From contig CAVRJY010000001.1 in the NCBI GenBank assembly GCA_963721805.1, positions 864,001 through 928,000 on the forward strand: a stretch of 64,000 bases of DNA, written 5' to 3'. Position 1 is the first letter of the stretch. Each line of letters begins with the position of its first letter. Made by a program: the position numbers and the translations under genes. Shown piece by piece: positions 6,518 through 28,971 of the stretch. The stretch is from Nitrospirota bacterium. GTDB lineage: Bacteria; Nitrospirota; Thermodesulfovibrionia; Thermodesulfovibrionales; JdFR-86. Under the pieces are notes generated by a model. It saw nothing but the letters and a program-made list of their open reading frames with translations, did no database searches and had not been told where the DNA came from.

Positions 6518-6533
6518 GGGGCATATCCACGGC

Positions 6534-6713: not shown

Positions 6714-6724
6714 TATCAATCGTC

Positions 6725-8151: not shown

Positions 8152-10010
8152 CCGAGCGCGTTTAGGCGCGCCTCGTACTCCTCCGAGCGGGCCTCCTGCT
8201 CGGAGGTCGCGGCCTCGAGCTCGGCGAACTTCGTGTCGATCTTCACCCTGAGGTCGTGCAGCGCTATCGACGCCTTCTGGATCGAGCCCCCGTCGCCGCG
8301 CGAGGAGGCGTCCATCAGCACCCCGGTCTCCCGGTTCTCCCTCGTCTCTAAATCTATTATTTCGGCCTCGAGCCTCGCTATGCGTTCCTTCAGCGGAGTG
8401 AGGACCTTCGAGCGCTCGTTGATCAGCGATGCCCTGGCGCGCTTTATGTCCTTGGCCCTGTAGTTCTTGGCTACGGCGGCCCCGCCGGCGGAATCGAGGG
8501 TGGAGGGCCCCTCGCCCTCCTCGGACCACCCGACGCGGTCGAGGAAGTCGCGGTAGCCACCCTCGAACATCTTGATCTCTCCCTGGTCGAATACGATCAA
8601 ACGCTCGGCGATGGCATCGAGTATCAGCTCGCTGTGCGTAACAATCATCACCGCACCGTTGAATTCGTCTATCGCCTCCAGGAGCGAGTCGATGGAAGGC
8701 ATGTCGAGGTGGTGCGTGGGCTCGTCGAGCAGCAGCAGGTTTGCGGGGCTTACGAGCAGCTTTCCCAGCAGGACGCGGCTCCGCTCGCCGCCCGACAGCA
8801 CGCGGACCTTCTTTAGCGCGTCGTCGTTGCTGAACATCATCGCGCCGCATATCGCGCGCGCCTGCGCGATGCTCACGTCGTTGCGCGTGTCCATGATCTC
8901 CTCAAGCACGGTCTTTGCCGGGTTCAGGCGGTCGATGTTGGTCTGGCCGAAGTATGCTATCCGGGCGTTCGGGTGAGGGGTTATCACGCCATCGCCCGGG
9001 TGCAGCTCCCCGGCGAGCAGGCTTAAAAGCGTGGTCTTGCCCCGGCCGTTTTTCCCTATCACGCCGATGCGGTCTCCGGGGCGGACCTCGAAGTTCAGGC
9101 CGTCGAGTATAGGGCTTCCCGCGCCTTGGTACGAAAACCCGAGCCCGCTTATGTCCATCATCCGCTTGCCGCTGAACGGGGCCTCCGAGAAGCTGAAATC
9201 CAGCACTCTCTCGGTCGAGAGCTTTTCCCTCCGTCCCTGCCTCTCCAGCGCTTTGACGCGCGACTGCACCGCGCTGGCCTTCGTGGCCTGGGCCCTGAAT
9301 CTATTTATGAAACGCTCGACCTCGCGCCGTTTCTTGTCGTCATTGATGCGCGTGCGCTCGTAGTGATCCTCCTCTTCGAGGATGCGGGCGGTGTATTTCT
9401 CGGTGCCCCCGGCGAACTTGCGGAACTTCTGGCGGTGGATGCCGAGCGTGTGCGTCACGACGCTGTCCATGAACGAGCGGTCGTGGGTGATGAGCAGCAG
9501 CTCGCCGCGCCACTGCCTCAGAAACCGCGTCAGCCACCTGATAGAGACGATGTCGAGGTAGTTGGTCGGCTCGTCTAATAAGAGCAAATTCGGCGCGGCG
9601 GCGAGCGCTTTCGTGAGGTTCAGGCGCACCTGGAACCCTCCCGAGAGCTCGGCCGGATCGCGGTCCATCAGCTCCGCGCCCATCCCGAGCCCTTCAAGTA
9701 TCGCCTTGACGCGGTACGTCTCGTCGCGGCCGTCCTCCGTGTGGGGCAGGGCGAGCGAGGCCTCGCGCAACACGGTCGGCTCGCTGAAACGGATGTGCTG
9801 CGAGACGTGCCCTATGCGGTAGCCGTCCGGGATGTTTATCGAGCCCTCGTCCGGGTGCTCCTCGCCGAGTATCATCTTAAAGAGTGTTGTCTTGCCCGAG
9901 CCGTTTATGCCGAGCACGCCTATGCGCTCACCGGGGTTAACGAAGAATCCGGTTGCGTCGAACAGGACGCGCTGGCCGTAATGTTTCGTGATGTTGTTGA
10001 CCTGTATCAA
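8148..10010 (-). CDS. ABC-F family ATP-binding protein
   Basis: Two NBDs (GINGSGKTT/LSGG/LLLDEPTN; GKNGRGKTT/LSGGE/LLLDEPTHHLD), no TM segments, C-terminal coiled coil. Confidence 0.92.
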   Translation of the reverse strand: MIQVNNITKHYGQRVLFDATGFFVNPGERIGVLGINGSGKTTLFKMILGEEHPDEGSINIPDGYRIGHVSQHIRFSEPTVLREASLALPHTEDGRDETYRVKAILEGLGMGAELMDRDPAELSGGFQVRLNLTKALAAAPNLLLLDEPTNYLDIVSIRWLTRFLRQWRGELLLITHDRSFMDSVVTHTLGIHRQKFRKFAGGTEKYTARILEEEDHYERTRINDDKKRREVERFINRFRAQATKASAVQSRVKALERQGRREKLSTERVLDFSFSEAPFSGKRMMDISGLGFSYQGAGSPILDGLNFEVRPGDRIGVIGKNGRGKTTLLSLLAGELHPGDGVITPHPNARIAYFGQTNIDRLNPAKTVLEEIMDTRNDVSIAQARAICGAMMFSNDDALKKVRVLSGGERSRVLLGKLLVSPANLLLLDEPTHHLDMPSIDSLLEAIDEFNGAVMIVTHSELILDAIAERLIVFDQGEIKMFEGGYRDFLDRVGWSEEGEGPSTLDSAGGAAVAKNYRAKDIKRARASLINERSKVLTPLKERIARLEAEIIDLETRENRETGVLMDASSRGDGGSIQKASIALHDLRVKIDTKFAELEAATSEQEARSEEYEARLNALG

Positions 10011-10528
10011 AACTCTATCCCTCGTCTCGCTCCTATTTTATTTGCGTACGGGTGCTTCGACTCGCGCATCTCGGTCACGAGGTCGGCCGAAGCGATCAGC
10101 TCGTCCGGCGCGCCCCGGCCGGTAAGCACGAGTTCGGTATGTGGCCCCTTTTTGCTTATGAATTCCAGCGCCTGAGCGGTCGTGATTATCCCCCCCGAGA
10201 GCAGGCAGTTGAACTCGTCGAGCACCACCAGGTCATATCCCGCGGCGATGCGCGCCGCGAGCTCAACCAGAGCGCGGCCCGCGGCCTCGCGGATTTCTTC
10301 TAGCGGCACCTCGGGGTGAAACCTCGGGGAGAGCACGTCGTGAAACCTCATGACCTCGACGCCGAGCGCCGTGAGCAGCTCGGTCTCGCCACCCTCTCGC
10401 GACTTCATGAACTGCGCGTAGAGCACCCGCAGGCTGCGAGACCTCGCGCGCACCGCGAGCCCGACCGACGCGGTCGTCTTGCCCTTGCCCCCGCCGGTGT
10501 AAACGTGTATCAGGCCCTGCTCAAGCAT
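10007..10528 (-). CDS. cobO: Cob(I)yrinic acid a,c-diamide adenosyltransferase (CobO/BtuR)
   Basis: GLIHVYTGGGKGKTTAS, LVVLDE, ELVLTGR, ADLVTEM..KHPY, RGIEF; start set at ATG 10528. Confidence 0.93.
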   Translation of the reverse strand: MLEQGLIHVYTGGGKGKTTASVGLAVRARSRSLRVLYAQFMKSREGGETELLTALGVEVMRFHDVLSPRFHPEVPLEEIREAAGRALVELAARIAAGYDLVVLDEFNCLLSGGIITTAQALEFISKKGPHTELVLTGRGAPDELIASADLVTEMRESKHPYANKIGARRGIEF

Positions 10529-11678
10529 CGTTGCGAAACCCCTCAAGCACGCGTGCGTCTATCTTATCGAGGATGGATTTGAAGCGGCCGCCATAGCTCT
10601 TGCTCTCCGCAAAAAGCGACGAGCGCAGGGCCTTGAGTTGCGGGTCCGCTGTAGCGGCGAAGCTCAAGGGCTCTCCGCGCTGAAGCGCCATCCGCTCGTG
10701 CAGCAGCAGCCGCTTTGCGTCGGCTACGAAAGAGGCGACCTCGCCGGCAAGCCCGTCCGGCAGAGCGCCGTCCGGCAGCTCGCGTATCATCGCGTGGAGG
10801 GTGAAGTACTCTATCCCCCTGATGCCGCGCCGCCACTGGATCAGCGGCGGACGGTCGTACCACAGGAAGTTCCGCCGCCCGAAGCGCATCAGCCCCTCGG
10901 CAAGGTCTTGGAGCGGCCCGGACGCAGGGCGAGCGGTCTCGGGCCTGATCATGCAGTAGTCGAGCCCAAGGTGCTTCCATACGTTTTGGAGCATGTGCGT
11001 TCCGCTTTGGTCGTATGGGGTATCCGGGTGCACGAGCGATGCCACTACGCGGCCGTCGCCGTATGCGCCCTCGACGACCAGCGGGTCCCCCTTCATGCGC
11101 GAGGGGTCGAGGTTGATCCCGTACGCGCGTTCGACATCTGTCCAGCCCGTCTCTTGCATGTCCCCGGCGCAGAGGTCGGACGAGAAGGTCGCCTGCGTGT
11201 GCGACTCGAACACCCCGAGCACGCGTATCGAGTTGTCGGCCGGAACGAACTGCGACGGCCACCAGATATGAAACCTCGGCGAGTCGATCCCCTCCCATAT
11301 CGGGTGGGGCGTGAGGTTGAGCATAACAGGGCCGCTCAGGCTCGGGGTGCGTTCCCTTAGAGGGCGGCGGTTGATCTGAAGCAGGCCAAGGCCGTCCGTG
11401 GTCGCGAGCCCCGCGCCGCCGCATATGCCGAAATATGAACCGCCCGAGCCGATGAATTTTCTTATCGCTGTCGCGCCCTTATCTCCGAGGGCCTTCATCT
11501 TATTAGACGCCCAGCCGCCGGGCACTACGAGCGCGGCGTGGTCGCGAAGCGCCCCGGCGCGGATGTCCGAGGCGGTCACAATCTTGTATGCGAGTCCGTT
11601 GCGATTAAGCGCGCGGATGAGTATCAAGGCCCAGTAGAACGACTCGTCCCACAGCAGCGCCGCCTTAGGAGAGCTCAT
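10521..11678 (-). CDS. BPL_N-like / class I glutamine-amidotransferase-like protein of unknown function
   Basis: LVVPGGWAS, GGSYFGICGGAG (nucleophile-elbow Cys), GRVVASLVHPD; overlaps both neighbours in the cob operon. Confidence 0.7.
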   Translation of the reverse strand: MSSPKAALLWDESFYWALILIRALNRNGLAYKIVTASDIRAGALRDHAALVVPGGWASNKMKALGDKGATAIRKFIGSGGSYFGICGGAGLATTDGLGLLQINRRPLRERTPSLSGPVMLNLTPHPIWEGIDSPRFHIWWPSQFVPADNSIRVLGVFESHTQATFSSDLCAGDMQETGWTDVERAYGINLDPSRMKGDPLVVEGAYGDGRVVASLVHPDTPYDQSGTHMLQNVWKHLGLDYCMIRPETARPASGPLQDLAEGLMRFGRRNFLWYDRPPLIQWRRGIRGIEYFTLHAMIRELPDGALPDGLAGEVASFVADAKRLLLHERMALQRGEPLSFAATADPQLKALRSSLFAESKSYGGRFKSILDKIDARVLEGFRNDA

Positions 11679-13374
11679 ACTTCCTCCCGTACCCGCGCGG
11701 CGTGACCATGCGCCCTCCCGTGCGGAAGCTCATCGAGTTTCCGATGATCACGGTGCTGCGCATCCCGACCTCGAAGTCCATCATGCGCTCCAATGTCGTG
11801 ACGACAGCGCGCTCGTCGGGGCGCATCGCGGAATCCACGATCCCTACAGGGGTAGATTGGGCGCGGTGGCGCAGTATGATCTCACGCGCCCGGCCGAGCT
11901 GTGTGGCGCGACCCCGGCTTTTTGGGTTATACAGCGCGATCACGAAGTCCGCGCGGCCTGCCGCATCGAGCCGCTCTTCTATCTTCTCCCAAGGCGTCAG
12001 GCGGTCCGAGAGGCTTATGGCAGCGAAGTCGTGCATCAGCGGAGCTCCGAGCACCGAGGCGCATGCGTTGAGCGCCGAGATGCCGGGGATGACCACAACG
12101 TCGACCGCTGCTGCCATCGCGTCGATGACCTCGAAGATCAGTCCGGCCATGCCGTATACACCGGCGTCGCCGCCGCTTATCACGGCCACGCGCCTGCCCG
12201 AGGCCGCAAGCTCGACCGCGGCCTTCGCGCGCTTGACCTCCTCGGTCATCGATGTAGCGACGACCTCTTTTCCTGCGAGCAGAAGCTCGATCATAGTGAT
12301 GTATGCCTTGAACCCGACTATCACGTCCGAGCTGCGTATGGCGTCGAGCGCGGCGGGCGTGATGTGCGAAAGCCCGCCCGGTCCGGTGCCGACGATGTAT
12401 AGCGTGGCCGCGAGCGACTCCGCGACCGCTAGCGTGAGGTTGCCGGATTTCGTCTTATGTACTATCAGCCTGCCTTGGTGCGATGCGACTATCGCCGATG
12501 GCTCCGCGACCGCCTGCACGCCCAGTGCGCGTTGTGCGGCCTCGGACTTCACGATGCCCTGCACGGAGTTCAACTCCTCGGCCGTGATGCCTATGACCCT
12601 GAGCCCGCGCGACTTTGCGAACTCGATCAGGCCCGGCTCCGCGGCCTTCTTCTCGTGAGTGGCGATGCATTTTAATGACAGCGGCGAGAGGGAGTGTTTT
12701 ATCATGAGCGCATCCACCGCGCCGGAGATCTCACCAGAAGTCGTGCCGCTGTTGAGGCCGATGCCTATCACGAGCGAGCGAGGCCTGAGCATCAGCGCGT
12801 GGCTCTCCATCACGCGTGAAGAGATGATAACGTCGGCCTTGTCAGGCGATGTCACGGCCTCGTATCCATCTGGCAGGTTAAACGCTCGATCCGAATATAC
12901 GCTGAGCGTGCCGTGCTCGATATGCCGCTTCGATACCCTTGGCAGGGCATCGCGGTTTTCGATGACCAGGCCATTGTCCTTTGCAAATACGTCGATGGAT
13001 ACCAGATCGTTCGTGTCCGTGCCGGTCGTGATGACCGGGTTCGCGCCGATATGCTCAGCGATCCGGGCCGCGAGCTCGTTCGCCCCGGCCTCGTGGCCGC
13101 CAAGCAGGCTGATCACGTTATTACCGCGTTCGTCGGTCACGACTATAGCGGGATCGTGAGCCTTGTCTTTAATGAGCGGGGCTATCGAGCGTACCGCTAT
13201 CCCCGATGCCATGATGAAGACAATAGCGCGGCTGGTGGGCCATAAGTGTGCGACGACCTCGCGAGTATATTTGATCGCCTCTGCCTCTGGATAAAGCGTG
13301 GCTATCCGTTCCGCTAAAGCGCGGCCGCCGGAGGTGACATAAAATATGATTACCCTGCTATGGTCTGTATCCAT
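11665..13374 (-). CDS. cbiG-cbiH: Fused cobalt-precorrin-5A hydrolase CbiG / cobalt-precorrin-3B C17-methyltransferase CbiH
   Basis: N-half: MASGIAVR, DKAHDPAIVV, SLLGGHEAGAN, AVAEPSA (CbiG). C-half: VGTGPG, ISGGDAGVYGMA, HDFAAISLSD, LYNPKS, TPRGY (CbiH/CobJ). Confidence 0.92.
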   Translation of the reverse strand: MDTDHSRVIIFYVTSGGRALAERIATLYPEAEAIKYTREVVAHLWPTSRAIVFIMASGIAVRSIAPLIKDKAHDPAIVVTDERGNNVISLLGGHEAGANELAARIAEHIGANPVITTGTDTNDLVSIDVFAKDNGLVIENRDALPRVSKRHIEHGTLSVYSDRAFNLPDGYEAVTSPDKADVIISSRVMESHALMLRPRSLVIGIGLNSGTTSGEISGAVDALMIKHSLSPLSLKCIATHEKKAAEPGLIEFAKSRGLRVIGITAEELNSVQGIVKSEAAQRALGVQAVAEPSAIVASHQGRLIVHKTKSGNLTLAVAESLAATLYIVGTGPGGLSHITPAALDAIRSSDVIVGFKAYITMIELLLAGKEVVATSMTEEVKRAKAAVELAASGRRVAVISGGDAGVYGMAGLIFEVIDAMAAAVDVVVIPGISALNACASVLGAPLMHDFAAISLSDRLTPWEKIEERLDAAGRADFVIALYNPKSRGRATQLGRAREIILRHRAQSTPVGIVDSAMRPDERAVVTTLERMMDFEVGMRSTVIIGNSMSFRTGGRMVTPRGYGRKYELS

Positions 13375-14101
13375 GCTTGAATTTCCTGTCATATAATTTC
13401 GATTCAGCCGCATCGTCATGCGCGAGCGCCGCGCCCACGTATATCAATGCGGTGCGAGTGATTGCGGCCTCCTTGACCTTTGAAGCGATGTCCGAAAGCG
13501 TCCCCCGCACGATGCGCTCGGTGGGCCACGATGCGCGCTCGACGACCGCGACCGGCGTCTCCGGAGTATAGCCGCCCTTTATGAGTTCTTCGACCAGCGC
13601 CTCGATCATCCCGACGCTCAGGAAGACGACCATTGTAGCACGATGGGCAGCGAGCGAGGCGATGTTCTCCCGCTCAGGCACAGGGGTGCGGCCTGCCATG
13701 CGCGTGAGGATCACGGTCTGCGAGACCTCGGGTATCGTGAGCTCCTGACCGAGCGCCGCCGCCCCCGCACCGACAGAAGACACGCCCGGCACGAGCTTGC
13801 CGTGTATGCCGAACTCCGCGAGCCGCCGGATCTGTTCGGTCACCGCGCTGTAAAAAGATATGTCCCCTGTATGGAGGCGTACCACGCGCTTGCCTTGGCT
13901 GATCGAGCTGCGTATAAGCTCCACGATAGCGTCGAGGTCCATCCCGGCCGAGTCGTATACCTCGGCCCTGATGCCCTGTAGCAGCGCGGGGTTCACGAGG
14001 CTCCCGGCGTATATCACGACGTCCGCCTCATCGAGCAGCCTCCGGCCTTTTATCGTCAGCAGCTCTGGGTCTCCGGGGCCTGCGCCCACGAAGCTAAGCA
14101 T
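13358..14101 (-). CDS. cbiF: Cobalt-precorrin-4 C11-methyltransferase
   Basis: FVGAGPGDPELLT, IYAGSLV, RLHTGD, ELTIPEVSQTVILTR, RASWP. Confidence 0.93.
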   Translation of the reverse strand: MLSFVGAGPGDPELLTIKGRRLLDEADVVIYAGSLVNPALLQGIRAEVYDSAGMDLDAIVELIRSSISQGKRVVRLHTGDISFYSAVTEQIRRLAEFGIHGKLVPGVSSVGAGAAALGQELTIPEVSQTVILTRMAGRTPVPERENIASLAAHRATMVVFLSVGMIEALVEELIKGGYTPETPVAVVERASWPTERIVRGTLSDIASKVKEAAITRTALIYVGAALAHDDAAESKLYDRKFKHGYRP

Positions 14102-14798
14102 TTCTTGTCCTCACGATCACGGTAGAGAAATAATTGAGGTCGCCTTCGTTGACCTCCGATAGCGGCTTTATCACCTCGCCTTGGCGCCCTGCGCGCGAGA
14201 CGAATACCGCGCCTCCCAAAAGCCCGCGCCTCGCGAGCACGGCCTTGATCTCCTCGATCACGCTGTGGGCCTTCATCAGTATGACGGTCTGAAACCCGTC
14301 GAGCACCGAATCGAGGTCACCCACGTACGTCGCGGGTATGACCGCGACCCTGTCGCCCGAGAGCGCGAGGCTCATCGATGCGGCCGCGGCCGAGGCCGTG
14401 ATCGAGCTGACGCCGGGTATGATCTCTGCCTTGAGGCCGGGCTCGATCTGGTGGATCGCGTCTAACAGATGAAAGAATGTGCTGTAGAGCGTAGGGTCGC
14501 CAAGCGTGATGAACGCCACGTCACGGCCCTGATACAGCAGGCCGAGCACCTCCTTGGCGGCCTTCCCGAGCGCCTCGCGTTGCGGGCCCTTGCGCATCGG
14601 GAAGTGTATCTCGAGCAGGCGCTTGCCCTGCATGTCCACGATGCTCTCGACGATGCCTAGCGCGACGCTCTCGCCGTCTTCTTTGCCCTTGGGCACAGCG
14701 ATCACCTCGGCCTCGCGCAGTATGCGCACGGCCTTGAGCGTGATGAGCTCCGGGTCCCCGGGGCCGATGCCTACGGCGTATAGCCTGCCTCGCGTCAT
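14094..14798 (-). CDS. cbiL: Cobalt-precorrin-2 C20-methyltransferase
   Basis: YAVGIGPGDPELITLKA, FPM, FITLGDPTLYSTF, IPGVSS, ILMK, YFS. Confidence 0.92.
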   Translation of the reverse strand: MTRGRLYAVGIGPGDPELITLKAVRILREAEVIAVPKGKEDGESVALGIVESIVDMQGKRLLEIHFPMRKGPQREALGKAAKEVLGLLYQGRDVAFITLGDPTLYSTFFHLLDAIHQIEPGLKAEIIPGVSSITASAAAASMSLALSGDRVAVIPATYVGDLDSVLDGFQTVILMKAHSVIEEIKAVLARRGLLGGAVFVSRAGRQGEVIKPLSEVNEGDLNYFSTVIVRTRNA

Positions 14799-15997
14799 GC
14801 GCGCCCCCTTATGAGCGTTACGGTATTTAACGCCTTCATGTATGTCTTTCCGTCCACGGGCTCGGAGCGCGATACAGATACTGCGACGATGTCCACCCCG
14901 AAGCCGTGGGCCTTAAGCGAGCTTATGGCCTCGTCGATATTCTCCAGCGTTATGGCCGAGACGACCACTACACCCCCGGCAGCCATGCGCCCGGCTGCAT
15001 GGCCGATGATCTCGCTCAGGCGCCCGCCCGAGCCGCCGATAAATACGCGCTCGGGGGAGGGCAGGGCGGCAAGCGCATCGGGGGCGCTTCCCTCGACCAC
15101 ATTGATCGCTCCGGCGTCGAGGATTCGGCTGTTGTGGCGGATGTCGGCCGCGCGCGCCGGGTCTTTCTCTATCGCGTATACATCGAGGGCGGGGCAGATG
15201 CGCCTTGCCTCTATCGCGACCGAGCCGGAGCCCGAGCCGATGTCCCATAGCACCCCGCGGCGCGGGAGCATGAGCTTGTGTATGGCGACTGCGCGGACTT
15301 CGTCTTTCGTTATCAGGCCGCGCTGGTGGCGGAACTCACCCTCGGATAATCCGAAGACGGGGCCGCCGGTTGCCTTGGAGAGGACGACCATCAGGTTAGG
15401 GCTTCGGAATTCCCTAAGCGCGATATCCTCGGCTGTGCCTGTCGTTATCGACTCGTCCGGATATCCGAGCCTCTCTAGAACGTGCACGGTGCACTCTGGC
15501 GGGAGCGAGCGAGAGATAGCGGCCGGCGTGTTCTCGCCGCCCGTGAGTATGAAGAGCTTGCCGTGGACCCGAAGCAGCATCCGCAGGTCTTCGAGCTTCC
15601 AGTCGCGCGTAGCCGTGCCGTGCAGGCTCACGAGGAATGCATCATGCCACGGTATGCGGAGCCGTGCGGCCGCGAGCTGCACCGACGAGAGCGTCGGGAT
15701 GATCTCTACCGGCCCGAGCGCCTCAATCAGCTTGATGCCTATGCCGAAGAACAGAGGGTCCCCGCTTGCGAGCACGGTAATGGTGCTCGCGGTTTTGCGG
15801 ACTCGCTCTATGATTTCTGACACGTTCGATATATTGACGCACTTCCCTGCGTATGGCTTAAACTCCGGGTGCTGCCCCGCAAGCCCGAGCAGGCTCGGGG
15901 ACGCCAGTATCTCGGAGGACGCATCGAGCGCGGCGAGCGCGGACTTTCCGAGCGCGCCCACGCCGTCGATGCCGACCACGAATATCTTCTCAGGCAT
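14795..15997 (-). CDS. cbiET: Fused precorrin-6Y C5,15-methyltransferase CbiE/CbiT
   Basis: VLASGDPLFFGIG, VSLHG, ERLGYPDE, GLITKDEVR, LWDIGSGSGSVAIE, FIGGSGG. Confidence 0.92.
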   Translation of the reverse strand: MPEKIFVVGIDGVGALGKSALAALDASSEILASPSLLGLAGQHPEFKPYAGKCVNISNVSEIIERVRKTASTITVLASGDPLFFGIGIKLIEALGPVEIIPTLSSVQLAAARLRIPWHDAFLVSLHGTATRDWKLEDLRMLLRVHGKLFILTGGENTPAAISRSLPPECTVHVLERLGYPDESITTGTAEDIALREFRSPNLMVVLSKATGGPVFGLSEGEFRHQRGLITKDEVRAVAIHKLMLPRRGVLWDIGSGSGSVAIEARRICPALDVYAIEKDPARAADIRHNSRILDAGAINVVEGSAPDALAALPSPERVFIGGSGGRLSEIIGHAAGRMAAGGVVVVSAITLENIDEAISSLKAHGFGVDIVAVSVSRSEPVDGKTYMKALNTVTLIRGRA

Positions 15998-17006
15998 TGG
16001 TTATCCTCCCGTCGTACGAGACCAGGTGCGCGCGCGTCGGTATCCCGCTGACGCTGCTACAGTACCATTCGGCCATGCGGAGCACCGGGCCGGGGCCTTC
16101 GATCTCGTCGAGCATCTCGCGCGCGGTGTTGTAATCTTTCCCCGAGAGCCTGATGCCGAGCCTGTCGAGGAACCCTGCAGCTTGTTTCATGTCGATCACG
16201 CCAGCGCGGACATGAGTGTCCGGGGTCGCCATAGCTATCTTGAGCATCTTGGCCCACTGGGCCGCGAGGTGTATGATTTTAAATCCGTGTGAGGCCGCCT
16301 CCTTGAGGCTGAACTCCACGTAGTCGCCCATCATGACGTATGAGGGCTCGGGAAGATTATATGTCCTCATGTGCGCAAGCTCGGAGGTGCGCCCGGCGCT
16401 CAGCACTATCTCATCGAGCCCCGATGCGCGCGCCACGTCCATCGACGAGCGTATCGTCGCGGTCCATGCCTCGCTCGAGAGCGGCCTGACTATCCCGGTA
16501 GTGCCTAGTATCGAGATCCCGCCCACGATGCCGAGCCTCGAGTTAAGCGTCTTTAGGGCAAGCTCCTCGCCGCGCGGGACGCAGATCGTGATCTCCATGG
16601 ATGATGCGACCTCTGAGACCGCCTCGCGTATCATCGCCATCGGCACGGGATTGATGGCCGACTCTCCGATCTTCACCGGGAGTCCGGGCCGCGTGACCAC
16701 GCCTACTCCAACGCCGCCTTTTATAATAATGCCGTTGTTGCTATGGGCTGCCATTGCCTCGATCTCGGCCCCGTTCGTGACGTCAGGGTCGTCGCCTGCG
16801 TCCTTGATGACCGACGCGCGAGAGACCGCGTCTTCCATGCCCTGAGAGTGTATCTTAAACGTCGCACGCTCGCCCGAGGGCATCGGGATATCTACCGACT
16901 CGCCGAGCGGTATGCCGGTAAGCTGCATTGCCGCGGCCTTAGCGGCCGCCGCGGCGCATGCCCCGGTCGTATAGCCCGAGCGCAGCGGCCTATTCGGGCG
17001 CGCCAT
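15990..17006 (-). CDS. cbiD: Cobalt-precorrin-5B C1-methyltransferase
   Basis: LRSGYTTGACAAAAA, KDAGDDPDVTNG, AINPVP, RLGIVGGISILGTTGIV. Confidence 0.95.
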   Translation of the reverse strand: MARPNRPLRSGYTTGACAAAAAKAAAMQLTGIPLGESVDIPMPSGERATFKIHSQGMEDAVSRASVIKDAGDDPDVTNGAEIEAMAAHSNNGIIIKGGVGVGVVTRPGLPVKIGESAINPVPMAMIREAVSEVASSMEITICVPRGEELALKTLNSRLGIVGGISILGTTGIVRPLSSEAWTATIRSSMDVARASGLDEIVLSAGRTSELAHMRTYNLPEPSYVMMGDYVEFSLKEAASHGFKIIHLAAQWAKMLKIAMATPDTHVRAGVIDMKQAAGFLDRLGIRLSGKDYNTAREMLDEIEGPGPVLRMAEWYCSSVSGIPTRAHLVSYDGRITNA

Positions 17007-17841
17007 CGAGCCTCCTAAGCAGCATCCGCCTGGCCTCGCCGACCGTGAGCGGGAGTTTCTTGAATTTCACGCCGTCTTCCTCCCTGAGCCTCCATATGAG
17101 CTCGGCCACGTGCGGGAGGCGGAGCTTGACCTCGCGCATCTCCTCCGGGGCGTTGAAGACCTCCTCGGGCGTGCCGGAGCGCGTAAGCCTGCCCTTGCTC
17201 AATATATAAAGCCTGCTAAGAAACAACGGCACCAGGTCTACGCTGTGGCTCGCCATCACGACCGTAACGCCCTTGTCCTTATTGAGTCCCATAAGCAGAT
17301 CCATCATCCTGTACTCGCCCATCGGGTCGAGCCCGGCCGTGGGTTCGTCCAGCAGAAGTATCTCGTGGCCCATCGCCAGGAGCCCGGCGATGCAGATGCG
17401 CTTCTTCTGGCCGAAGCTCAGGTGGCTGATCCGGCTCTTGGCATGGCCGGACATGTCCGTGGCCTCAAGCGCATACCTGATGCGCTCTCGGATTTCGGGC
17501 TCGGGTATGCCCATGTTAAGCGGGCCGAAGGCCACGTCCTCCTCAACCGTGCCGCCGAAGAGCTGAGAGTCCGGGTTTTGGAACACGAGCCCCACGCGGC
17601 CGTATATCTCGCGCGGCGTAAGGCGGCTGATCTCCGCGCCGTCAAGCCGCACGCTGCCCTCGTAGCCCTTGAGCATCCCGTCCATGAGGTTTAGAAGCGT
17701 GGTCTTCCCCGAGCCGTTTGAGCCGAGGATGCCAGCGAACTCGCCGCGGCGCACAGCGAGGCTTATGCTCTGAAGGCTGAACGCGCCCTCGTGGTAGCGG
17801 TATCCGGCGTCTATGAGTTCTATCCTCGCAGGACTGTCCAT
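16990..17841 (-). CDS. cbiO: Cobalt ECF transporter ATPase
   Basis: GSNGSGKTT, VFQNPDSQLF, DVAFGPLN, LSFGQKKR, DEPTAGLDP. Confidence 0.92.
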   Translation of the reverse strand: MDSPARIELIDAGYRYHEGAFSLQSISLAVRRGEFAGILGSNGSGKTTLLNLMDGMLKGYEGSVRLDGAEISRLTPREIYGRVGLVFQNPDSQLFGGTVEEDVAFGPLNMGIPEPEIRERIRYALEATDMSGHAKSRISHLSFGQKKRICIAGLLAMGHEILLLDEPTAGLDPMGEYRMMDLLMGLNKDKGVTVVMASHSVDLVPLFLSRLYILSKGRLTRSGTPEEVFNAPEEMREVKLRLPHVAELIWRLREEDGVKFKKLPLTVGEARRMLLRRLDGAPE

Positions 17842-18542
17842 ATCATCCCGGAGACTAAGATGAGCATGAATGCGAGCGCGGCCTCGGTGCGGCGCATGTG
17901 TTTGTGCTGATACAGTGGCATCACGCCCTCATACCCTCGCTGACGGAGCGCCGCCGAGGTCTGCCCCGCGTGGTCGAAGACCGCGAGGACCAAAGCCCCC
18001 GCGAGCGTGCCGAAGCTCCTGATGCCGTTTGACATCTTCGCGTATCCGAGTCTGTTTTTCTGAGCGGTGTATATCACCACAGCCTCTTCGAATAGCACGA
18101 ATATGTACCTGTACGCGAACGTCAGTATTTCGATGAAATCCCGAGGCAGGCGCATCCAGCCTAGCGCGGCTATGACCTCGGTAAAAGTCGTTGTGAACCC
18201 TATCAGCGCCAGCACCGAGACAGCCCCCATCACGCGTGAGCCGATTATCATCCCTTCCCGGAGGCTGCCATGTTCGGTGAGGAATACCTTTACGGCGCAC
18301 AGCACCAGCACGATGAAAAGCGGCTCGGCGAACCGCAGGAGGATGGTGAAGGGCGCTACGCCTATCACGAGCGCCGTAAACACTGACACCGCGAACACCA
18401 GCGAGGGGAACGCGTAGCCTCTGCTCAGCAGCACGAGCGCGATGAGCGCGAGACCCGCTATCAGCTTAAGCCGCGCGTCGGCCCGGCCGAGCGCCCCGGC
18501 ACTTTTGGCCGGGGCGTCAGCTATGGGATGGAAGTGGCTCAC
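17820..18542 (-). CDS. cbiQ: Cobalt ECF transporter T component
   Basis: DARLKL, hydrophobic helices, YRYIFVL, AQKNRLGY, LRQRGY; start set at GTG 18542 overlapping the upstream stop. Confidence 0.88.
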   Translation of the reverse strand: MSHFHPIADAPAKSAGALGRADARLKLIAGLALIALVLLSRGYAFPSLVFAVSVFTALVIGVAPFTILLRFAEPLFIVLVLCAVKVFLTEHGSLREGMIIGSRVMGAVSVLALIGFTTTFTEVIAALGWMRLPRDFIEILTFAYRYIFVLFEEAVVIYTAQKNRLGYAKMSNGIRSFGTLAGALVLAVFDHAGQTSAALRQRGYEGVMPLYQHKHMRRTEAALAFMLILVSGMIWTVLRG

Positions 18543-18802
18543 TCGCGGCCCTTTGGTTTCTCTGTCAGCATGCGGTAAGAATAACCTCCTGCGAACCCCG
18601 CCGCCGCGCCGCCGAGCAGGAACACGAACAGGAGCATATCGCCCTGGTCGGTGTTGATAAGCGGCGCGTGGGCCTCGCGGCCGTGCTCTTTTGCGACCTT
18701 CTCGACCACGGCCTCGTCCACTCCGACCCATGCTGCATAGGCCGCGCTCCCGGCGAATGCCATGCAAGCAAGCAGCGCCATAGATATGACTATGCGTTTC
18801 AT
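18539..18802 (-). CDS. Small cobalt-transport accessory membrane protein (CbiN-like)
   Basis: Signal/TM helix, WVGVDEAVVEK loop, second TM (LLFVFLLGGAAAGFAGGY); lies between cbiM and cbiQ with ATGA overlap. Confidence 0.7.
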   Translation of the reverse strand: MKRIVISMALLACMAFAGSAAYAAWVGVDEAVVEKVAKEHGREAHAPLINTDQGDMLLFVFLLGGAAAGFAGGYSYRMLTEKPKGRE

Positions 18803-19560
18803 GCCGCCACCTCCGAGGGCTTGATTACCTTCATCTTCACGAGCAGGTCCGGCCGCCGCTTGTATAGCAGCACGACCATCCCGGCTGTCATCGCGCCTTC
18901 CAGGATCCCGAGCGGGAGCTGTGTCGGGATGAACGAGAGCATTATCTTCCACGCCAGAGGCCAAAACGCATCATCGCCCTTGATGCCGGAGGCGAGCTCC
19001 ATCGACGTGGCGATGTAGGTGCACCAGTCTGCGGCGACCCCGGCGACAAAGGCCGATGTGCCGAGCGAAAGCCGCGCCGAGCGCAGGAGCTTGAATGTTC
19101 CGTAAGCCGCGAACGAGCCTACGATGCCCATCGACATTATGTTCGCGCCCCAGGTGCTGATGCCTCCGTGCGCGAGAAACAGGGCCTGTATCAGGAGCGC
19201 GGCCGCCGCGACCACCACGCTTACGAATGGCCCGACCAATAGCGCCGAGATGCCGGTGCCGCATGGGTGCGAGCATGTCCCAGCCACAGGCACCGGGATC
19301 GGCATGCACGAGATGATGAACACGAGCGCGGCCATCAGGCCGAGCAGGGGCTTGAACGATACGTCCTCGCGGCTTTTAATTTTAACCTGGCGAAGCCCTA
19401 TCGCAACAAACGGCGCTGCGAGCACGAACCACAGCGCGGCCCAGTTTAAGGGCAGGATGCCCTCCGAGATATGCATCGCATAGGCATTGGCGGGAACCAG
19501 CGCTAGCAGAGCTAGCAGAGCTATCGCAGAGCGTTTATGGCGGCATATTGTAGTCTTCAT
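18799..19560 (-). CDS. cbiM: Cobalt ECF transporter S component
   Basis: Leader ending ANAYA followed by MHISEG; GTCSHPCG, QALFLAHGG, QLPLGILEG. Confidence 0.93.
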   Translation of the reverse strand: MKTTICRHKRSAIALLALLALVPANAYAMHISEGILPLNWAALWFVLAAPFVAIGLRQVKIKSREDVSFKPLLGLMAALVFIISCMPIPVPVAGTCSHPCGTGISALLVGPFVSVVVAAAALLIQALFLAHGGISTWGANIMSMGIVGSFAAYGTFKLLRSARLSLGTSAFVAGVAADWCTYIATSMELASGIKGDDAFWPLAWKIMLSFIPTQLPLGILEGAMTAGMVVLLYKRRPDLLVKMKVIKPSEVAA

Positions 19561-19873: not shown

Positions 19874-20058
19874 GGATAGGTCTTCCGGCTTGGGGCATAA
19901 GTCTTCACCTACTCGCCCGCCTTCCCATCGCGGTCATCTCCGCGACAGTGGCTAATGGATGGGCTTTCGTTCCCTTTACGGCTGCGGGGCAGCGGGAGAA
20001 TCGCACTCCTCTTCCCTGGCTTCCTCTGACATTGCTGGCTTTTGTCCCCATCACCTCC
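19874..20058 (-). ncRNA. Cobalamin riboswitch (upstream of the Cys-rich gene-cbiMNQO-cbiD block)
   Basis: Minus strand shows AGGGAA, CTGCCCCGCAGCCGTAA, GCCACTG...GGGAAGG, AGCCGGAAGACCT (B12 box); ends approximate. Confidence 0.88.
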
Positions 20059-20084: not shown

Positions 20085-21038
20085 TTATACGGCAAGCTTT
20101 GCTATCGCGTTTACTATAGCCGCGGCCACGGGGCTTCCGCCCTTCCTGCCAAGGTTCGTGATGAACGGAAAATTCTGGGACGCCAGCAGGGCCTTGGATT
20201 CCACCGCACGCACGAACCCCACCGGCACCCCAACGACCAGCGCCGGACGGACACGGCCCGTATTTATTAACTCTATGCATTTCAGCAGGGCGGTGGGCGC
20301 GTTACCTATCGCGACGATCCCGATGCTGTCATCGAGCATCTCCTCCATAGCCGACTCGGCGCGCGTCATGCCTTCCTTTGCCTCCGCCTCCGAGATGCCG
20401 CAGAGCACCTTGCCCTTGATGATTTTTTTATTGATCCCCGCGCGGACCATCTCGACGTCCGTGAGTATGTTCTTACCGCTGCGGATCGCCTCTATCCCCG
20501 CACCCACCGCGTCCGGGTGAAACATCATGGTAGTCCTGAAATCGAAGTCCCCGGTGGCGTGTATGACGCGGCGCACTACGGGGCGGTGGAGTTCCGGCAG
20601 GCCGTCGAGCGAGAGTTCGTCCTCTATAGTGCGCATGCTCGCGGCCTCGATCTCGTGCGGGGCGAGTCCGCATGCCGACTCGATGCGGTCGCGGACGACC
20701 TGCACGAGCTTCTCCGAGATGCCCAGCGGCTCTGTGTAGTGGAACTCGACGTCCGGATGAGCATTCCGGGCATCGTCTATGATCGCGGGGATGTCCTTTG
20801 TCACGTGCATGCCAGAGGCCAGGAAGTAGGGGTGCACGATCACGCGCGTCGCGCCCTCGCGCACTGCCTCTTCGAGCACCCCCGGAAGCTCCGGGCTCTG
20901 GAACTGCAAGTACGCGGTGCTGACGCAGGCGTTCTCACAGCCGGGGTGCAGCAGGCCGTGGAGCATGACGCCCACGAGGTCCATCTGGTTTGCGTCCTTC
21001 TTCGGGCTCCCGTGGCCGACCAGTATTATTTTTTCCAT
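20085..21038 (-). CDS. cbiX-cbiC: Fused sirohydrochlorin cobaltochelatase CbiX / precorrin-8X methylmutase CbiC
   Basis: IILVGHGS, AYLQFQSP, PYFLASGMHVTKDIP (CbiX); IEAASM, RVIHATGD, IGNAPTAL, GVPVGFV, GRKGGSPVAAA (CbiC); start set at ATG 21038. Confidence 0.9.
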   Translation of the reverse strand: MEKIILVGHGSPKKDANQMDLVGVMLHGLLHPGCENACVSTAYLQFQSPELPGVLEEAVREGATRVIVHPYFLASGMHVTKDIPAIIDDARNAHPDVEFHYTEPLGISEKLVQVVRDRIESACGLAPHEIEAASMRTIEDELSLDGLPELHRPVVRRVIHATGDFDFRTTMMFHPDAVGAGIEAIRSGKNILTDVEMVRAGINKKIIKGKVLCGISEAEAKEGMTRAESAMEEMLDDSIGIVAIGNAPTALLKCIELINTGRVRPALVVGVPVGFVRAVESKALLASQNFPFITNLGRKGGSPVAAAIVNAIAKLAV

Positions 21039-22351
21039 GTAGATTCCTTTCGAATAAAATCCACGAACCAGCGCGCGGCCTCGGGCCGTGAGCCGAGATG
21101 CACGTGCGTATAGCTCGCGAGGCATCGGTTCAGCGAGGCCGACGATACACGAGTGCCAGCCCCCTCGCCCAGAACATTATATTTTACCCCATCGGCAGCG
21201 GCCGGGTCCGTTATCTCGCTGTAATGAAACTCATGCCCGCGCAGGACCGTGCCCTCCGGCCCCAATATACAGTCCGAGAGAAGACGGACCTCGCGGTATC
21301 CGAGCGCCGCGCGTTTGTTGAGCATGCGGGTTTCGAACGGGAATACCTCGGCCATCTCAAACGTCCCGTCATCGCTCTGAATCGCCCGGCCAAGGTACAT
21401 CAGCCCCCCGCACTCGGCGTAGAGCGGCCGGCCTTCACTCACCCATGCCCGGACGCTCGCGAGCATCGCGCGGTTGCCCGAGAGCGCGGCAGCGTGGAGT
21501 TCGGGATATCCGCCCCCGATAGATACCGCATCGAGATCAGCGGGAAGGGCGGCATCATTAAGCGGGCTGAAGGGGACGATCTCCGCTCCGGCTTGGCGCA
21601 GCATTTCTAAGTTATCATCGTAATAAAAACAGAACGCGCGGTCCCGAGCCACGGCGATGCGCACGGTGGGCGTTTCGTTTACTGGCGCGGCTATCGCATC
21701 AGGTGGGATGGAGAGTTCCTTGATGCGATTCATGTCGATGTTCTTGATTATGGCGTCCGCCAGCACATCGAGCGAGGCCGCGCTGATCGGGGAGTCCTCG
21801 GCCACGTGCAGCCCCAGGTGGCGCTCGGGGATGCTAAACTGCACGTCTCTCGGAAGATACCCGAGCACCTCGACATCGGCTACCGAGGCGCGGAGCCTTG
21901 CGTAGTGCGCCTCTGACGCGACACGGTTGAAGATCACGCCAGAGAGAGTAGCGCCCGATGCATTAAAGCCGTGCACTATCGCACCGGCGCTCTCGGCCAT
22001 CCCATATGCGTCGACCACTAGCACGACGTTAGCGCCTATCGCCGAGGCGAGAGCGGCGGTGCTCCGATCCGCCCCGTCATAGAGTCCCATAACGCCCTCG
22101 ATCACGACCGCATCCGCGCCTTTGGAGTGCATCGCAAATGATGAACGCACATAGTCCGCGCCGCAGATCCAGAGGTCGAGGTTGCGTGAGACGCGCCCGG
22201 CGATCATGGTGTGCAGGCCCGGGTCTATGAAGTCCGGCCCGGCCTTGAAGGGCTGCACGCTATGGCCGAGCCTCCGAAGCGCGACGAGCAGCCCGAGCGT
22301 GACCGTGCTCTTTCCGCAGCCGCTGTGCGTGCCCGCGATCAGGAGCGGCAT
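21026..22351 (-). CDS. cbiA: Cobyrinate a,c-diamide synthase
   Basis: GTHSGCGKS, FKAGPDFIDP, EGVMGLYDG, IPERHLGL, AFCFYY, AECGGLM, GHEFHYS. Confidence 0.95.
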   Translation of the reverse strand: MPLLIAGTHSGCGKSTVTLGLLVALRRLGHSVQPFKAGPDFIDPGLHTMIAGRVSRNLDLWICGADYVRSSFAMHSKGADAVVIEGVMGLYDGADRSTAALASAIGANVVLVVDAYGMAESAGAIVHGFNASGATLSGVIFNRVASEAHYARLRASVADVEVLGYLPRDVQFSIPERHLGLHVAEDSPISAASLDVLADAIIKNIDMNRIKELSIPPDAIAAPVNETPTVRIAVARDRAFCFYYDDNLEMLRQAGAEIVPFSPLNDAALPADLDAVSIGGGYPELHAAALSGNRAMLASVRAWVSEGRPLYAECGGLMYLGRAIQSDDGTFEMAEVFPFETRMLNKRAALGYREVRLLSDCILGPEGTVLRGHEFHYSEITDPAAADGVKYNVLGEGAGTRVSSASLNRCLASYTHVHLGSRPEAARWFVDFIRKESTWKK

Positions 22352-23403
22352 TCGTAGCCCTCCTCGCCGGATGTGGCATCGCCGAGCCCTGCGATCAGGA
22401 GCGCGTTTTCTCTCCTCGTGCGCACCGCCACCCGTATATGCCGCCTGTCCAGTCCGCGGAAGTCCGAGCAGTCGCGCACGATGATCCCGCGCGCGGCGAT
22501 TTCGGTTGTCACGCGTTTTGCATCAGCTATTTCAAGGAGATAGTAGTTCACGTCCGACGGATAGTGCCTGATCGATAGCCGCCTGAACTCGCTTTCGAGG
22601 TATGCCTTCTCTGTGCCTATAAGGCGGCGTGTGCGTTCTATATAGTTGGTGTCAGCGAGCGATGCCGCAGCCGCCATCTGGGCCGGGGTGTTGATGCTCC
22701 ACGGTTCCTTTAGCAGCCGGAGCTTTCTAATCATGCGCTGCGGGAAGACGCCGAACCCGGCCCTGAGCCCGGCAAGCGCGTAGAACTTCGTTAGCGAGCG
22801 AATCACCGCAAGATAGGGGCTCTCTATGTCGAGCACCGAGCCAGAGGGGCAGAAGTCCATGAACGCCTCATCGACCACGAGCATGCACCTTGCGGCCTCG
22901 GCCGCCTTGACTATGCGCAAGACCTCCTCGCGTTCTATAAGCGTGCCGGTCGGGTTTCCGGGGTTGCACAGAAACGCCATATCCGTCCCGGACATTGCCT
23001 TTATGAACGCATCGGGCCTGGGCACGTAGCCGTCCCGGCGATGCGCGGTGACCTGCTTGAGCCTCGCGCCGGCCGCTGCCGCTGCATGAGCGTATTCCGA
23101 AAACGTCGGCCCCGCGATCAGGACGGTCTTCGGGGCCAGGGCGCGCACGCTAAGGAATATGAGTTCGGTGCTCCCGTTGCCGCAGAGCAGGCGCGATGGG
23201 TCAATATTATAACGGCTGGATATCGCCCGTGTCATTTCATATGAGTCGGGGTCGGGGTAATGCGCGCATAGCTCCAGCGCCCGCCTCATCGCGGAACGCG
23301 CCTTGGGCGACGGCCCGAGCGGGTTGATCGAGGCGCTCAGGTCGATGATCTCGCCGTCCCCGCGTTCGCGCGCGGCCTTGTGGATGTTGCCGCCGTGGCT
23401 CAC
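22339..23403 (-). CDS. cobD: L-threonine-O-3-phosphate decarboxylase
   Basis: HGGN, DLSASINPLG, YPDP, GNGSTE, CNPGNPTG, DEAFMDF, RSLTKFYALAGLRAG; cob-operon context. Confidence 0.9.
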   Translation of the reverse strand: MSHGGNIHKAARERGDGEIIDLSASINPLGPSPKARSAMRRALELCAHYPDPDSYEMTRAISSRYNIDPSRLLCGNGSTELIFLSVRALAPKTVLIAGPTFSEYAHAAAAAGARLKQVTAHRRDGYVPRPDAFIKAMSGTDMAFLCNPGNPTGTLIEREEVLRIVKAAEAARCMLVVDEAFMDFCPSGSVLDIESPYLAVIRSLTKFYALAGLRAGFGVFPQRMIRKLRLLKEPWSINTPAQMAAAASLADTNYIERTRRLIGTEKAYLESEFRRLSIRHYPSDVNYYLLEIADAKRVTTEIAARGIIVRDCSDFRGLDRRHIRVAVRTRRENALLIAGLGDATSGEEGYECRS

Positions 23404-24344
23404 AGGAGAAGCCTTAACTGGAGCGCGGTCGCCGCGAGCGCGAGGCCGCCGAGCGCCGTGACCGTCGTGATCGCCATCGCCCTGCAGCGCGTCTCCTTAT
23501 AATGCAGGCCGCCGCCCTCGCCGATGCGGGGCTTCTCGACGAGCACGCCGCCATACACGGACGGCCCGCCTAGCACCACTCCCAACGCCCCGGCCATCGC
23601 GGCCTCAGGGATGCCGCTGTTCGGGCTTGAGTGTTTTCCTCCGTCACGGAGCATCGTCATGAGCGCGTCCGTAGCATGCGCGGCGCGCACGAACGAGGCT
23701 GCAACGACCATCAGCGCGCCCGTGAGCCTCGCTGGTATGAAGTTCGCGATATCGTCGATCCGCGCCGGGGCCCAGCCGAACTTAATGTAACGGTCGTTTT
23801 TGTACCCGACCATCGAGTCGAGCGTGTTTACGGCCTTATACGCCATCGCGAGCGGGACGCCGCCGATCGCGAGGTAAAAAAGCGGCGCGATTATGCCGTC
23901 CGAGGTGTTCTCGGCGAGCGTCTCTATCGCGGCGCGGTGGATGCCCTCCTCGTCGAGCGATGCGGTGTCGCGCCCGACGATCCGCGATAGCCTCCGGCGC
24001 GCCAGCTCGATATCCTTGCTTTTGAACACGCCGCCCACCGCCATCACGAGCCCCCTAAGCGCGAGCGTCGTCGAGGCGAGGTATGCGATGATTATCGTAG
24101 CCGTGATCCCGCCTATGCGTAGGCGGATGAACTCAACGGCGTAATATGTTAAAAAGTATGTTGCGCCGACCATCGTGACCGCGAGCAATACCCCGCCGAT
24201 GCGCGCGGGCATTAGCTTGCGCAAGATCGCCTCGCCCCACTCGATAGCCTTGCCGATGATGCGCACCGGGTGGGGCAGCCAGCGGGGGTCTCCGATCAGG
24301 ACGTCGAACCCGAAGGCGATCAATAGCTCAAGCGGGGTAATCAC
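23400..24344 (-). CDS. cbiB: Adenosylcobinamide-phosphate synthase
   Basis: GDPRWLPHPV, IVGRDT, ETLAENTSDG, YKAVNTLDSMVGY, SPNSGIPEAA; start set at GTG 24344. Confidence 0.93.
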   Translation of the reverse strand: MITPLELLIAFGFDVLIGDPRWLPHPVRIIGKAIEWGEAILRKLMPARIGGVLLAVTMVGATYFLTYYAVEFIRLRIGGITATIIIAYLASTTLALRGLVMAVGGVFKSKDIELARRRLSRIVGRDTASLDEEGIHRAAIETLAENTSDGIIAPLFYLAIGGVPLAMAYKAVNTLDSMVGYKNDRYIKFGWAPARIDDIANFIPARLTGALMVVAASFVRAAHATDALMTMLRDGGKHSSPNSGIPEAAMAGALGVVLGGPSVYGGVLVEKPRIGEGGGLHYKETRCRAMAITTVTALGGLALAATALQLRLLL

Positions 24345-25813: not shown

Positions 25814-26421
25814 GGCCCCCCGTTTAGGAGCTTTATGACCGCCACGCCGTCGTCGTGTATCTCGATCACGTTTACGCATGAATACTGCTGCTCGATGCGG
25901 AAGATGTTATTCAATGACAGCCCCATGTAGTGGCAAAGCGTTGTGCGGTTTACGCCTCCGTGCGCGACGATTATAAACGTCTCGTCCTTGTGGCGCGCCG
26001 CGAGCCCCTGAACAATAGGCAGCACGCGGTCGCTCACCTGCTGGGTGCTCTCGCCCCCTATCGGGCTGAAGTGCAGCGGGTTCGTGGCCCAGGCCTTGAA
26101 GTCGTTGGGGTAGGCGGCGTCGATCTCGTCGAAGCTCATCCCCTCCCACTTGCCGAAATTTCGCTCGCGCAGGCCGGGCTCGATCTCTAATTCAAGGCCA
26201 TATAATGCGGCTATCGGCCGGGCGCTTTCTATCGCGCGGCCGAGCTTGGAACTATAGATAGCGCGCACGCCCTCGGGGAGGCATTCCCTGACATAGCGCG
26301 CGGTGATGCGAGCGGCTTCGAGGCCCTCGGCCGAGAGCGGGACGTCAATGGTGCCCTTATACCGCCGGTCCTCGTTGCCCTCGGTCGCGCCGTGCCTTAT
26401 CAGATATATAGTCGTTGCCAT
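25804..26421 (-). CDS. cobC: Alpha-ribazole phosphatase (histidine phosphatase family)
   Basis: LIRHG, LRERNFGKWEG, GGES, VAHGG; lies between cobS and cobQ. Confidence 0.85.
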   Translation of the reverse strand: MATTIYLIRHGATEGNEDRRYKGTIDVPLSAEGLEAARITARYVRECLPEGVRAIYSSKLGRAIESARPIAALYGLELEIEPGLRERNFGKWEGMSFDEIDAAYPNDFKAWATNPLHFSPIGGESTQQVSDRVLPIVQGLAARHKDETFIIVAHGGVNRTTLCHYMGLSLNNIFRIEQQYSCVNVIEIHDDGVAVIKLLNGGPCR

Positions 26422-28273: not shown

Positions 28274-28292
28274 CCGTGCATCCTCCTTATGG

Positions 28293-28808: not shown

Positions 28809-28971
28809 CACATGCCCCTGCGGTTGCGGAGAAATGAAAAGCCCCGGCAGGATGCCGGAGAGTGCGGCATGTAACGCTCCATCTTGATGATCTCCTTGTC
28901 TTCGCAAGGGGGGCCGCGGGCGGGTCATTGACCCCTTCCGCTTAAATCACTGGCCCCTCAAGGTTAATCTG

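Follow-up and report, generated by a model that had tools for sequence, protein, structure and literature searches.

A class I amidotransferase-like protein with a helical domain in the CbiJ-less B12 operons of Thermodesulfovibrionia

Gene lists are routinely used to predict which organisms produce cobamides. The B12 clusters of Thermodesulfovibrionia and their relatives, which are anaerobic sulfate reducers, are otherwise complete and contain no CbiJ, the cobalt-precorrin-6A reductase; the class would therefore be scored as incomplete. One such cluster lies in the 64,000-nucleotide stretch of a Nitrospirota genome analyzed here (contig CAVRJY010000001.1, positions 864,001 to 928,000; hereafter the window). 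Its only gene without an assigned step is an open reading frame (ORF) between cbiGH and cobO, which we call X, and X is universally co-located in these CbiJ-less clusters. What does X do? Its reaction would either be new chemistry that closes the CbiJ gap or add an unrecognized step, such as amide editing or acyl transfer. Such a step, if true, would be common to cobamide and siroheme-amide metabolism. A repeated link of X to DsrN, a siroheme amidase of the CbiA family, points to this shared step rather than to the CbiJ gap.

The X family is a genuine enzyme family tied to the metabolism of sirohydrochlorin-derived tetrapyrroles. We favor the reading, at a probability of about 0.5, that X is an enzyme dedicated to these tetrapyrroles, either a thioester-forming hydrolase or one of the glutaminase type, which acts on them directly or works for a tetrapyrrole enzyme. 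This reading is preferred because of the structure, the CGG motif shared with CbiA and CobQ, and the repeated DsrN link. X is a real pathway component, although relatives are also kept by bacteria without ring synthesis. Within the class I amidotransferase-like superfamily, both its appended domain and its pathway setting are new. Our literature search returned no paper on the X family or on a CbiJ substitute. The relevant passages of PMC7617358, PMC6461909, and PMC7242693 name no CbiJ replacement; PMC6461909 acknowledges non-homologous, unidentified replacements in general terms, and PMC7242693 presents CbiJ as an NADH-dependent step with no named alternative.

Fold and active site of X

X is a real gene rather than a chance ORF, because it has 941 homologues at E≤1e-3 among 8000 candidates scored, 1320 cluster representatives at the same threshold (93 at E≤1e-30), and an AlphaFold2 model with a mean predicted local distance difference test score (pLDDT) of 95 and a predicted template modeling score of 0.93. 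At least 574 relatives occur in the one-genome-per-species GTDB set, among the 600 pattern-matched stretches listed. The homologues carry the source names Nitrospirota, Thermodesulfovibrionales, Dissulfurispiraceae, and Syntrophales.

The initial annotation had described a 385-residue ORF overlapping both neighbors, with an amidotransferase-like core and a helical C-terminal part. Each of these points is borne out: X shares 14 nucleotides with the end of cbiGH and 26 with the listed cobO start, and the AlphaFold2 model has two domains, with VIA-align and Foldseek in agreement on the N-terminal one. The N-terminal domain matches Pdx2 (2abw_A) with a Z score of 20.2 and a root-mean-square deviation of 2.4 over 189 aligned residues, followed by HisH (1kxj_A; Z 19.3) and PurQ (3d54_D; Z 18.5). 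These glutaminase-subunit matches span model residues 2-240, with deviations of 2.4-2.8 over 183-193 residues and identities of 15-20%. The best Foldseek matches are likewise GATase domains (E 3e-8). The modeled domain thus shows the three-layer alpha/beta architecture typical of class I (triad) glutamine amidotransferases, and the alignments place a putative nucleophile-elbow Cys, and a His with an acid two residues on, at the expected sites.

Sequence profiles say less about X than its structure. BPL_N (PF09825), the N-terminal domain of eukaryotic biotin-protein ligase and the databases' name for X homologues, is the sole Pfam model over its cut-off (32.3 bits against 24.2). The alignment is confined to residues 46-92, which correspond to profile positions 49-95, that is, only 47 of 283; X contains no biotin ligase domain, nor is it linked to biotin genes. 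GATase_3 (PF07685) stays under its cut-off of 27 with 17.6 bits (E 0.003); a few homologues of X carry a precomputed match to it. The DJ-1/PfpI models are also below their cut-offs (PF01965, 15 bits against 26.6; TIGR01382, 12.6 against 139), as is the weak match to Pfam GATase. An NCBIfam scan of X gave no useful match, and PF02571 (CbiJ/CobK) gave none at E≤1.

Conservation was read from 35 diverse homologues and from 77 sequences taken from fetched loci. Cys86, in the GICGG motif that the initial annotation had pointed out, is invariant in both sets (35/35 and 77/77), and so is His217 of the H217-P218-D219 motif noted with it. Residue 219 is Asp in 77/77 and either Asp or Glu across the diverse homologues. 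P53-G54-G55-W56 is invariant in both sets. The residues invariant among the 35 are G54, G55, G79, G84, C86, G87, G88, G116, P141, D168, Y186, P192, G209, H217, L272, W282, G285, G288, and G364. Charged and aromatic residues R104, R284, R287, R352, K60, W10, W56, W139, and W282 are invariant in 77/77, and K367 in 76/77. In the C-terminal domain the motif W282-R-R284-G-x-R287-G-x-E290 is invariant. This domain also folds when modeled alone (pLDDT 91). A structure search with it returned only generic helical bundles (best Z 7.8), and the ESM Atlas returned one unnamed cluster (0.77) and no lead.

Judged by the model, X therefore appears competent for acyl-transfer catalysis by a Cys-His-Asp triad, and its helical appendage is new. 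In catalysis, His217 and Asp219 would activate Cys86, and the PGGW loop would probably form the oxyanion hole. A thioester would be formed on an amide-, ester-, or aldehyde-level carbonyl, as in the Pdx2, HisH, and PurQ glutaminase subunits. The invariant Arg, Lys, and Trp residues would suit a polycarboxylate macrocycle. Together with the helical domain they may bind it, or may dock X on a partner, for which a CbiA/DsrN-type amidase, CbiGH, and CobO are candidates. The chemistry would be that of a glutaminase, or else the hydrolysis of an amide or ester on a side chain of the tetrapyrrole. We do not expect X to perform the NAD(P)H-type reduction of CbiJ: the predicted fold and the invariant triad point to acyl transfer and away from hydride reduction. 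The view of the initial annotation that the fold gives no hint of a reductase is upheld by the class I amidotransferase match.

Nucleophile motifs of glutaminases have the form G-x-C-x-G-x-Q, in which the Q binds glutamine. Pdx2/PdxT, HisH, and PurQ share with X the alpha/beta fold (Z 18-20), the order of nucleophile-elbow Cys and His-x-acid, and the free-standing form in place of a domain within a synthase. They differ in that X reads G-x-C-G-G-A-G, without the glutamine-binding Q, and is extended by a helical domain of 140 residues; a search for a synthase partner of X identified none. The C-G-G motif of X is found in the GATase_3 domains of CbiA and CobQ of the window. Both proteins keep their nucleophile cysteines, as annotated at the outset (Cys314 in AECGGLMYL and Cys354 in GLCGGYQML, respectively). 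CbiA/CobB, CobQ/CbiP, and DsrN share the pathway and neighborhood of X, and GatD of the GatD/MurT pair (6gs2_A) matches it structurally (Z 12.7), but X lacks the ATP-grasping or DTBS-like synthetase domain of these systems. An amide-editing hydrolase or an ammonia supplier, two of the roles first proposed, would fit the modeled structure better than the third, a stand-in for CbiJ.

X and CbiJ in Nitrospirota

The third role says that X supplies, or makes unnecessary, the CbiJ step in clusters with a fused cbiGH and cbiX-cbiC and without CbiJ. We regard it as possible, if on the unlikely side. It could take the form of a thiol-based reductase, or of an oxidation of the extruded two-carbon unit to an acyl-thioester with the macrocycle keeping the two electrons. 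The absence of CbiJ/CobK from the cluster, as first noted, extends to the whole genome of the window (9 contigs, 94% complete), in which PF02571 and TIGR00715 have no match down to E≤10. No CbiJ match occurs in any of the 80 fetched X loci either, and X is the sole cluster gene without an assignment.

Two genome samples bear on this role: 41 relatives from the order of the window, its own genome included, and 301 genomes from the phylum. CbiD is found in 18 of the 41; 13 of these have X and no CbiJ, and 5 have CbiJ but lack a full X (in G035, which belongs to these five, the X-like match spans 76 residues only). Five further order genomes have X without CbiD; in four X follows cbiGH, and in the fifth the contig ends. 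Across the phylum sample, full X occurs in 70 genomes, CbiJ in 11, and both in none. CbiC is present in 124 genomes: X accompanies it in 65 and CbiJ in 11, and 48 lack both. X without CbiC is seen in five; CbiG_N is present in three of these, and the remaining two are incomplete assemblies (63-65%). Within the class of the window, every CbiC-positive genome except one (G246) has exactly one of X and CbiJ. The two types meet within a single genus, where G125 has a classical cluster (CbiK, separate CbiG and CbiH, CbiD, CbiJ), and G106 and G140 have the X-type cluster (CbiX-CbiC, fused CbiGH, X). In G319 the X-type cluster lacks CbiJ and X is encoded elsewhere in the genome.

A confounder of this complementarity is that cluster types are exchanged as a whole. 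The 48 CbiC-positive genomes with neither gene show that CbiJ-independent routes exist without X. G246, which is 100% complete, has CbiC, CbiET, CbiF, CbiG, and CbiH and neither X nor CbiJ; its ring pathway may be decaying, since no CbiD or CbiL match was found beside its cbi genes. The structural evidence also speaks against a reductase: CobK is described as two Rossmann domains (PMC4663756), while X is amidotransferase-like, with no nucleotide-binding fold among its structure matches and no conserved second cysteine in its alignment. X and CbiJ/CobK are alike in their placement in corrin-ring operons. Beyond the phylum, X also co-occurs with CbiJ and persists in genomes without ring synthesis, as described below.

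A more specific, chemically coherent form of the CbiJ role, which we consider unlikely, would make the Thermodesulfovibrionia-type pathway CbiJ-free throughout the class. Cys86 would attack the aldehyde-level two-carbon unit extruded by CbiG and oxidize it to an acetyl-thioester, with the electrons passing into the macrocycle, a non-orthologous solution to the CbiJ step. The two-carbon unit would leave as acetate and not as acetaldehyde, and the cobalt-precorrin-6B level would be reached without an NAD(P)H reductase. Our own redox accounting, based on textbook pathway chemistry, makes the conversion of cobalt-precorrin-3 to cobalt-precorrin-6B and acetate redox-neutral.

Several clusters without X or cbiD showed further features. 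In the four CbiD-less X genomes of the order an extra tetrapyrrole methylase occupies the place that cbiD has in the window. Many X-type clusters without cbiD have such a methylase (244-263 residues) between cobO and cbiET (examples are L015:4047-4838 in G015, L036:5790-6575 in G106, and L037:14712-15446 in G140); it is a candidate CobF-like substitute for the C1 methylase. In G246 (L133:9721-12198), cbiG and cbiH are in separate frames and two small ORFs (92 and 120 residues) follow cbiH. Phylum genomes of another family without CbiJ and X (L029:6047-8519, L030, L034) have three conserved genes before cbiD, namely an FAD_binding_6 oxidoreductase (241 residues), a 125-residue ORF, and a 403-residue ORF that matches no Pfam family. 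They may represent another CbiJ-independent solution. None of the three has a homologue in the genome of the window, a point in favor of the CbiJ role of X. The ORFs beside cbiD in clusters without X and CbiJ were rejected as divergent copies of X (hhalign probability 0.2). X as a substitute for precorrin-2 dehydrogenase was also ruled out, as SirC (TIGR01470) is present in 38 of the 41 order genomes, that of the window among them.

X beside dsr genes and without ring synthesis

Gene contexts were compared for 77 near-full-length copies, that is, 76 of the 80 fetched loci and the window; four loci were excluded with matches of less than 330 query residues. X stands directly downstream of cbiGH on the same strand in 49/77 copies, across many families. 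One copy has cobQ directly upstream, six have cbi genes within 12 kb, and the copy of the window is itself cbi-linked. These counts agree with the initial view of X as an unassigned component of cobamide operons. Eleven copies are beside a PF03601-dsrA-dsrB-dsrN-dsrC block, one is beside a PF03601 gene only, four have dsrC or dsrN 7-10 kb off, and four have no marker. The gene after X differs by locus (cobO, a ThiC-like gene, cobU, cobS, cbiB, or none).

Fusions to three tetrapyrrole enzymes support a tetrapyrrole role. X is fused to CobO in 13 of 268 stored homologues, to a CbiH methylase in P0123, and to DsrN in P0137, whose N-terminal part is 54% identical to Syntrophales DsrN and 37% to CbiA of the window. 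The X part of P0137 falls outside the dsr-adjacent clade of Syntrophales; going by the sequences, the X-DsrN link therefore arose at least twice, once as adjacency in Syntrophales and once as the P0137 fusion. A remote homologue of 763 residues (P0216), with about 30% identity to X across its two domains, carries a fused CofD-family domain (PF01933).

These data also bear on the suggestion that X has no tetrapyrrole-specific role and is a general glutaminase, peptidase, or scaffold carried along with cbi and dsr blocks. The BPL_N label covering 47 residues only, the C-terminal domain without an informative structural match, and the unconserved genes downstream of X in Syntrophales would be compatible with it. 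The kept position after cbiGH, the independent fusions, and the order sample, in which X is present only alongside ring genes, speak against it and make it very improbable.

The CobO fusions, and the overlap of cobO with the end of X in the window, raise another possibility, that X is an accessory of CobO. It might, for example, prepare or hand over the corrinoid by thiolate removal of the upper ligand before adenosylation. All five ring-less Syntrophales genomes with X do have CobO. This role is nevertheless improbable: in the order CobO is present in 39/41 genomes and X in 19/41 (18 full-length matches), X following the ring genes, the gene after X is variable, and X does not adjoin cobO in Syntrophales. 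When the X-CobO complex was predicted (alignments A1 and A3), the score was 0.00, "no answer", which says nothing about binding either way. A role of X in Dsr cofactor formation in the order was ruled out, with DsrB in 40/41 genomes and X in 19.

Ten X-bearing genomes labeled Syntrophales, Syntrophaceae, or delta-proteobacterium were checked. CbiC is present in only four of them. Two (G320 and G321) have an intact CbiJ, in classical cbi clusters far from X, and a third (G315) has a truncated one. Five CbiC-less genomes also lack CbiG_N; one of these is a single 4.6-Mb chromosome. Small CbiX chelatases (PF01903) occur in 0/5 of these ring-less genomes, and X as their obligate partner was thus ruled out. 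In a tree from a quick search, the copies next to dsr genes group as a single 15-row clade (SH-like approximate likelihood ratio test value 99), nested among cbi-linked copies, and this clade retains the triad and almost all other conserved residues checked. Ratios of nonsynonymous to synonymous substitution rates (dN/dS) are 0.10-0.22 in 8/10 pairs and the remaining two pairs are saturated; the set comprised five CbiC-less genomes, four of them also shown to lack CbiG_N. Since the triad is kept and dN/dS is low, the same active site appears to be maintained where no corrin ring is made.

The five genomes that keep X under purifying selection without CbiC and CbiG_N, and the two that have X with an intact CbiJ, count against the CbiJ role. 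The stand-in for CbiJ put forward in the initial annotation thus stands as a pattern of mutual exclusion in the phylum (70 against 11 of 301, none with both). It does not hold as the general function of X, given the ring-less clade, G320 and G321, and the 48 genomes with neither gene. The check proposed there, co-localization of homologues with cbi genes and anti-correlation with CbiJ, has fared similarly: both are seen in the phylum, but five Syntrophales genomes with X are ring-less and two carry X and an intact CbiJ. The pattern of a functional CbiJ analogue holds in the class of the window, save for G246, and fails in Syntrophales.

For the hydrolase or glutaminase-type enzyme that we favor, the persistence of X under purifying selection without CbiC or CbiG means that the substrate would not be restricted to late corrin-ring intermediates. 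Some observations weigh against this reading. CbiA, CobQ, and DsrN keep their own glutaminase cysteines, which leaves no evident client for an additional source of ammonia. About 20 genomes of the order have CobO, and almost all of them DsrB, yet no X; neither adenosylation nor the Dsr cofactors thus require X there. Within the order X tracks the ring-synthesis cluster only. The step of CbiJ is the sole one of this cluster type without an assigned gene, which favors the CbiJ role. The reaction that we propose is itself a prediction from sequence and modeled fold.

Other features of the Syntrophales loci were recorded. The block PF03601-dsrA-dsrB-dsrN-dsrC is conserved, is headed by a gene for a YeiH-like membrane protein (PF03601), and diverges in transcription from X (L068, L071, L081, L102, L103, and L114, at about positions 3700-9700 of each). 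In G315, which has no CbiC, a CobD-CobQ fusion (857 residues) is followed by cobO and by a CbiJ limited to profile positions 73-231 (L127:6657-10479). This arrangement looks like the remnant of a lost ring pathway.

The B12 operons and the rest of the window

The positions of X, its domains and catalytic codons, and the surrounding B12 genes are collected in Table 1. X would be co-transcribed in a riboswitch-controlled corrin-ring operon with the order cbiM-cbiQ-cbiO-cbiD-cbiET-cbiL-cbiF-cbiGH-X-cobO, with the riboswitch at its head. The preceding operon, cobU-cobT-cobS-cobC-cobQ-cbiB-cobD-cbiA-cbiX/cbiC, is also headed by its own cobalamin riboswitch. All cluster genes listed in the initial annotation were confirmed with NCBIfam. 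The cobO product is under the cut-offs of the NCBIfam equivalog models (141.8 against 185).

Table 1. Positions of X, its predicted parts, and the neighboring B12 genes and riboswitches in the window.
Feature	Position	Strand	Basis or remark
Gene X	10521..11678	minus	385 residues, ATG-started ORF; two-domain protein
X N-terminal domain, residues 1-246	10941..11678	minus	class I triad glutamine-amidotransferase fold (model)
X Cys86 codon, putative nucleophile-elbow cysteine of G-x-C-G-G	11421..11423	minus	codon position checked
X His217-Pro218-Asp219 codons, putative His and acid of triad	11022..11030	minus	position checked
X C-terminal helical domain, residues 247-385	10524..10940	minus	invariant W282, R284, G285, R287, G288, E290
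cbiGH fusion (cobalt-precorrin-5A hydrolase and C17 methyltransferase), directly upstream of X	11665..13419	minus	NCBIfam TIGR01466, 310.9 bits, residues 340-577; CbiG models, residues 24-334
cobO/cobA-type corrinoid adenosyltransferase, directly downstream of X	10007..10546	minus	PF02572, 172.7 bits
Remaining operon: cbiM, cbiQ, cbiO, cbiD, cbiET, cbiL, cbiF	13358..19560	minus	NCBIfam
Cobalamin riboswitch upstream of cbiM	19878..20017	minus	Rfam RF00174, 72.2 bits (gathering 31.5), model positions 45-169
Upstream operon: cobU, cobT, cobS, cobC, cobQ, cbiB, cobD, cbiA, cbiX-cbiC	20085..28928	minus	NCBIfam
Cobalamin riboswitch upstream of cobU	28959..29154	minus	Rfam RF00174, 114.7 bits, full model

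After cobO, the minus-strand gene at 8148-10010 encodes an ABC-F ATPase whose match to the 'ribosomal protection-like ABC-F' model, at 365 bits, falls just short of the cut-off (380). A HEPN_LA2681-domain protein is encoded upstream of the B12 region, at 31015-32397 on the plus strand. The G+C fraction falls to 0.48-0.50 at 42001-46000, compared with about 0.62 elsewhere in the window, and this segment may be foreign DNA.

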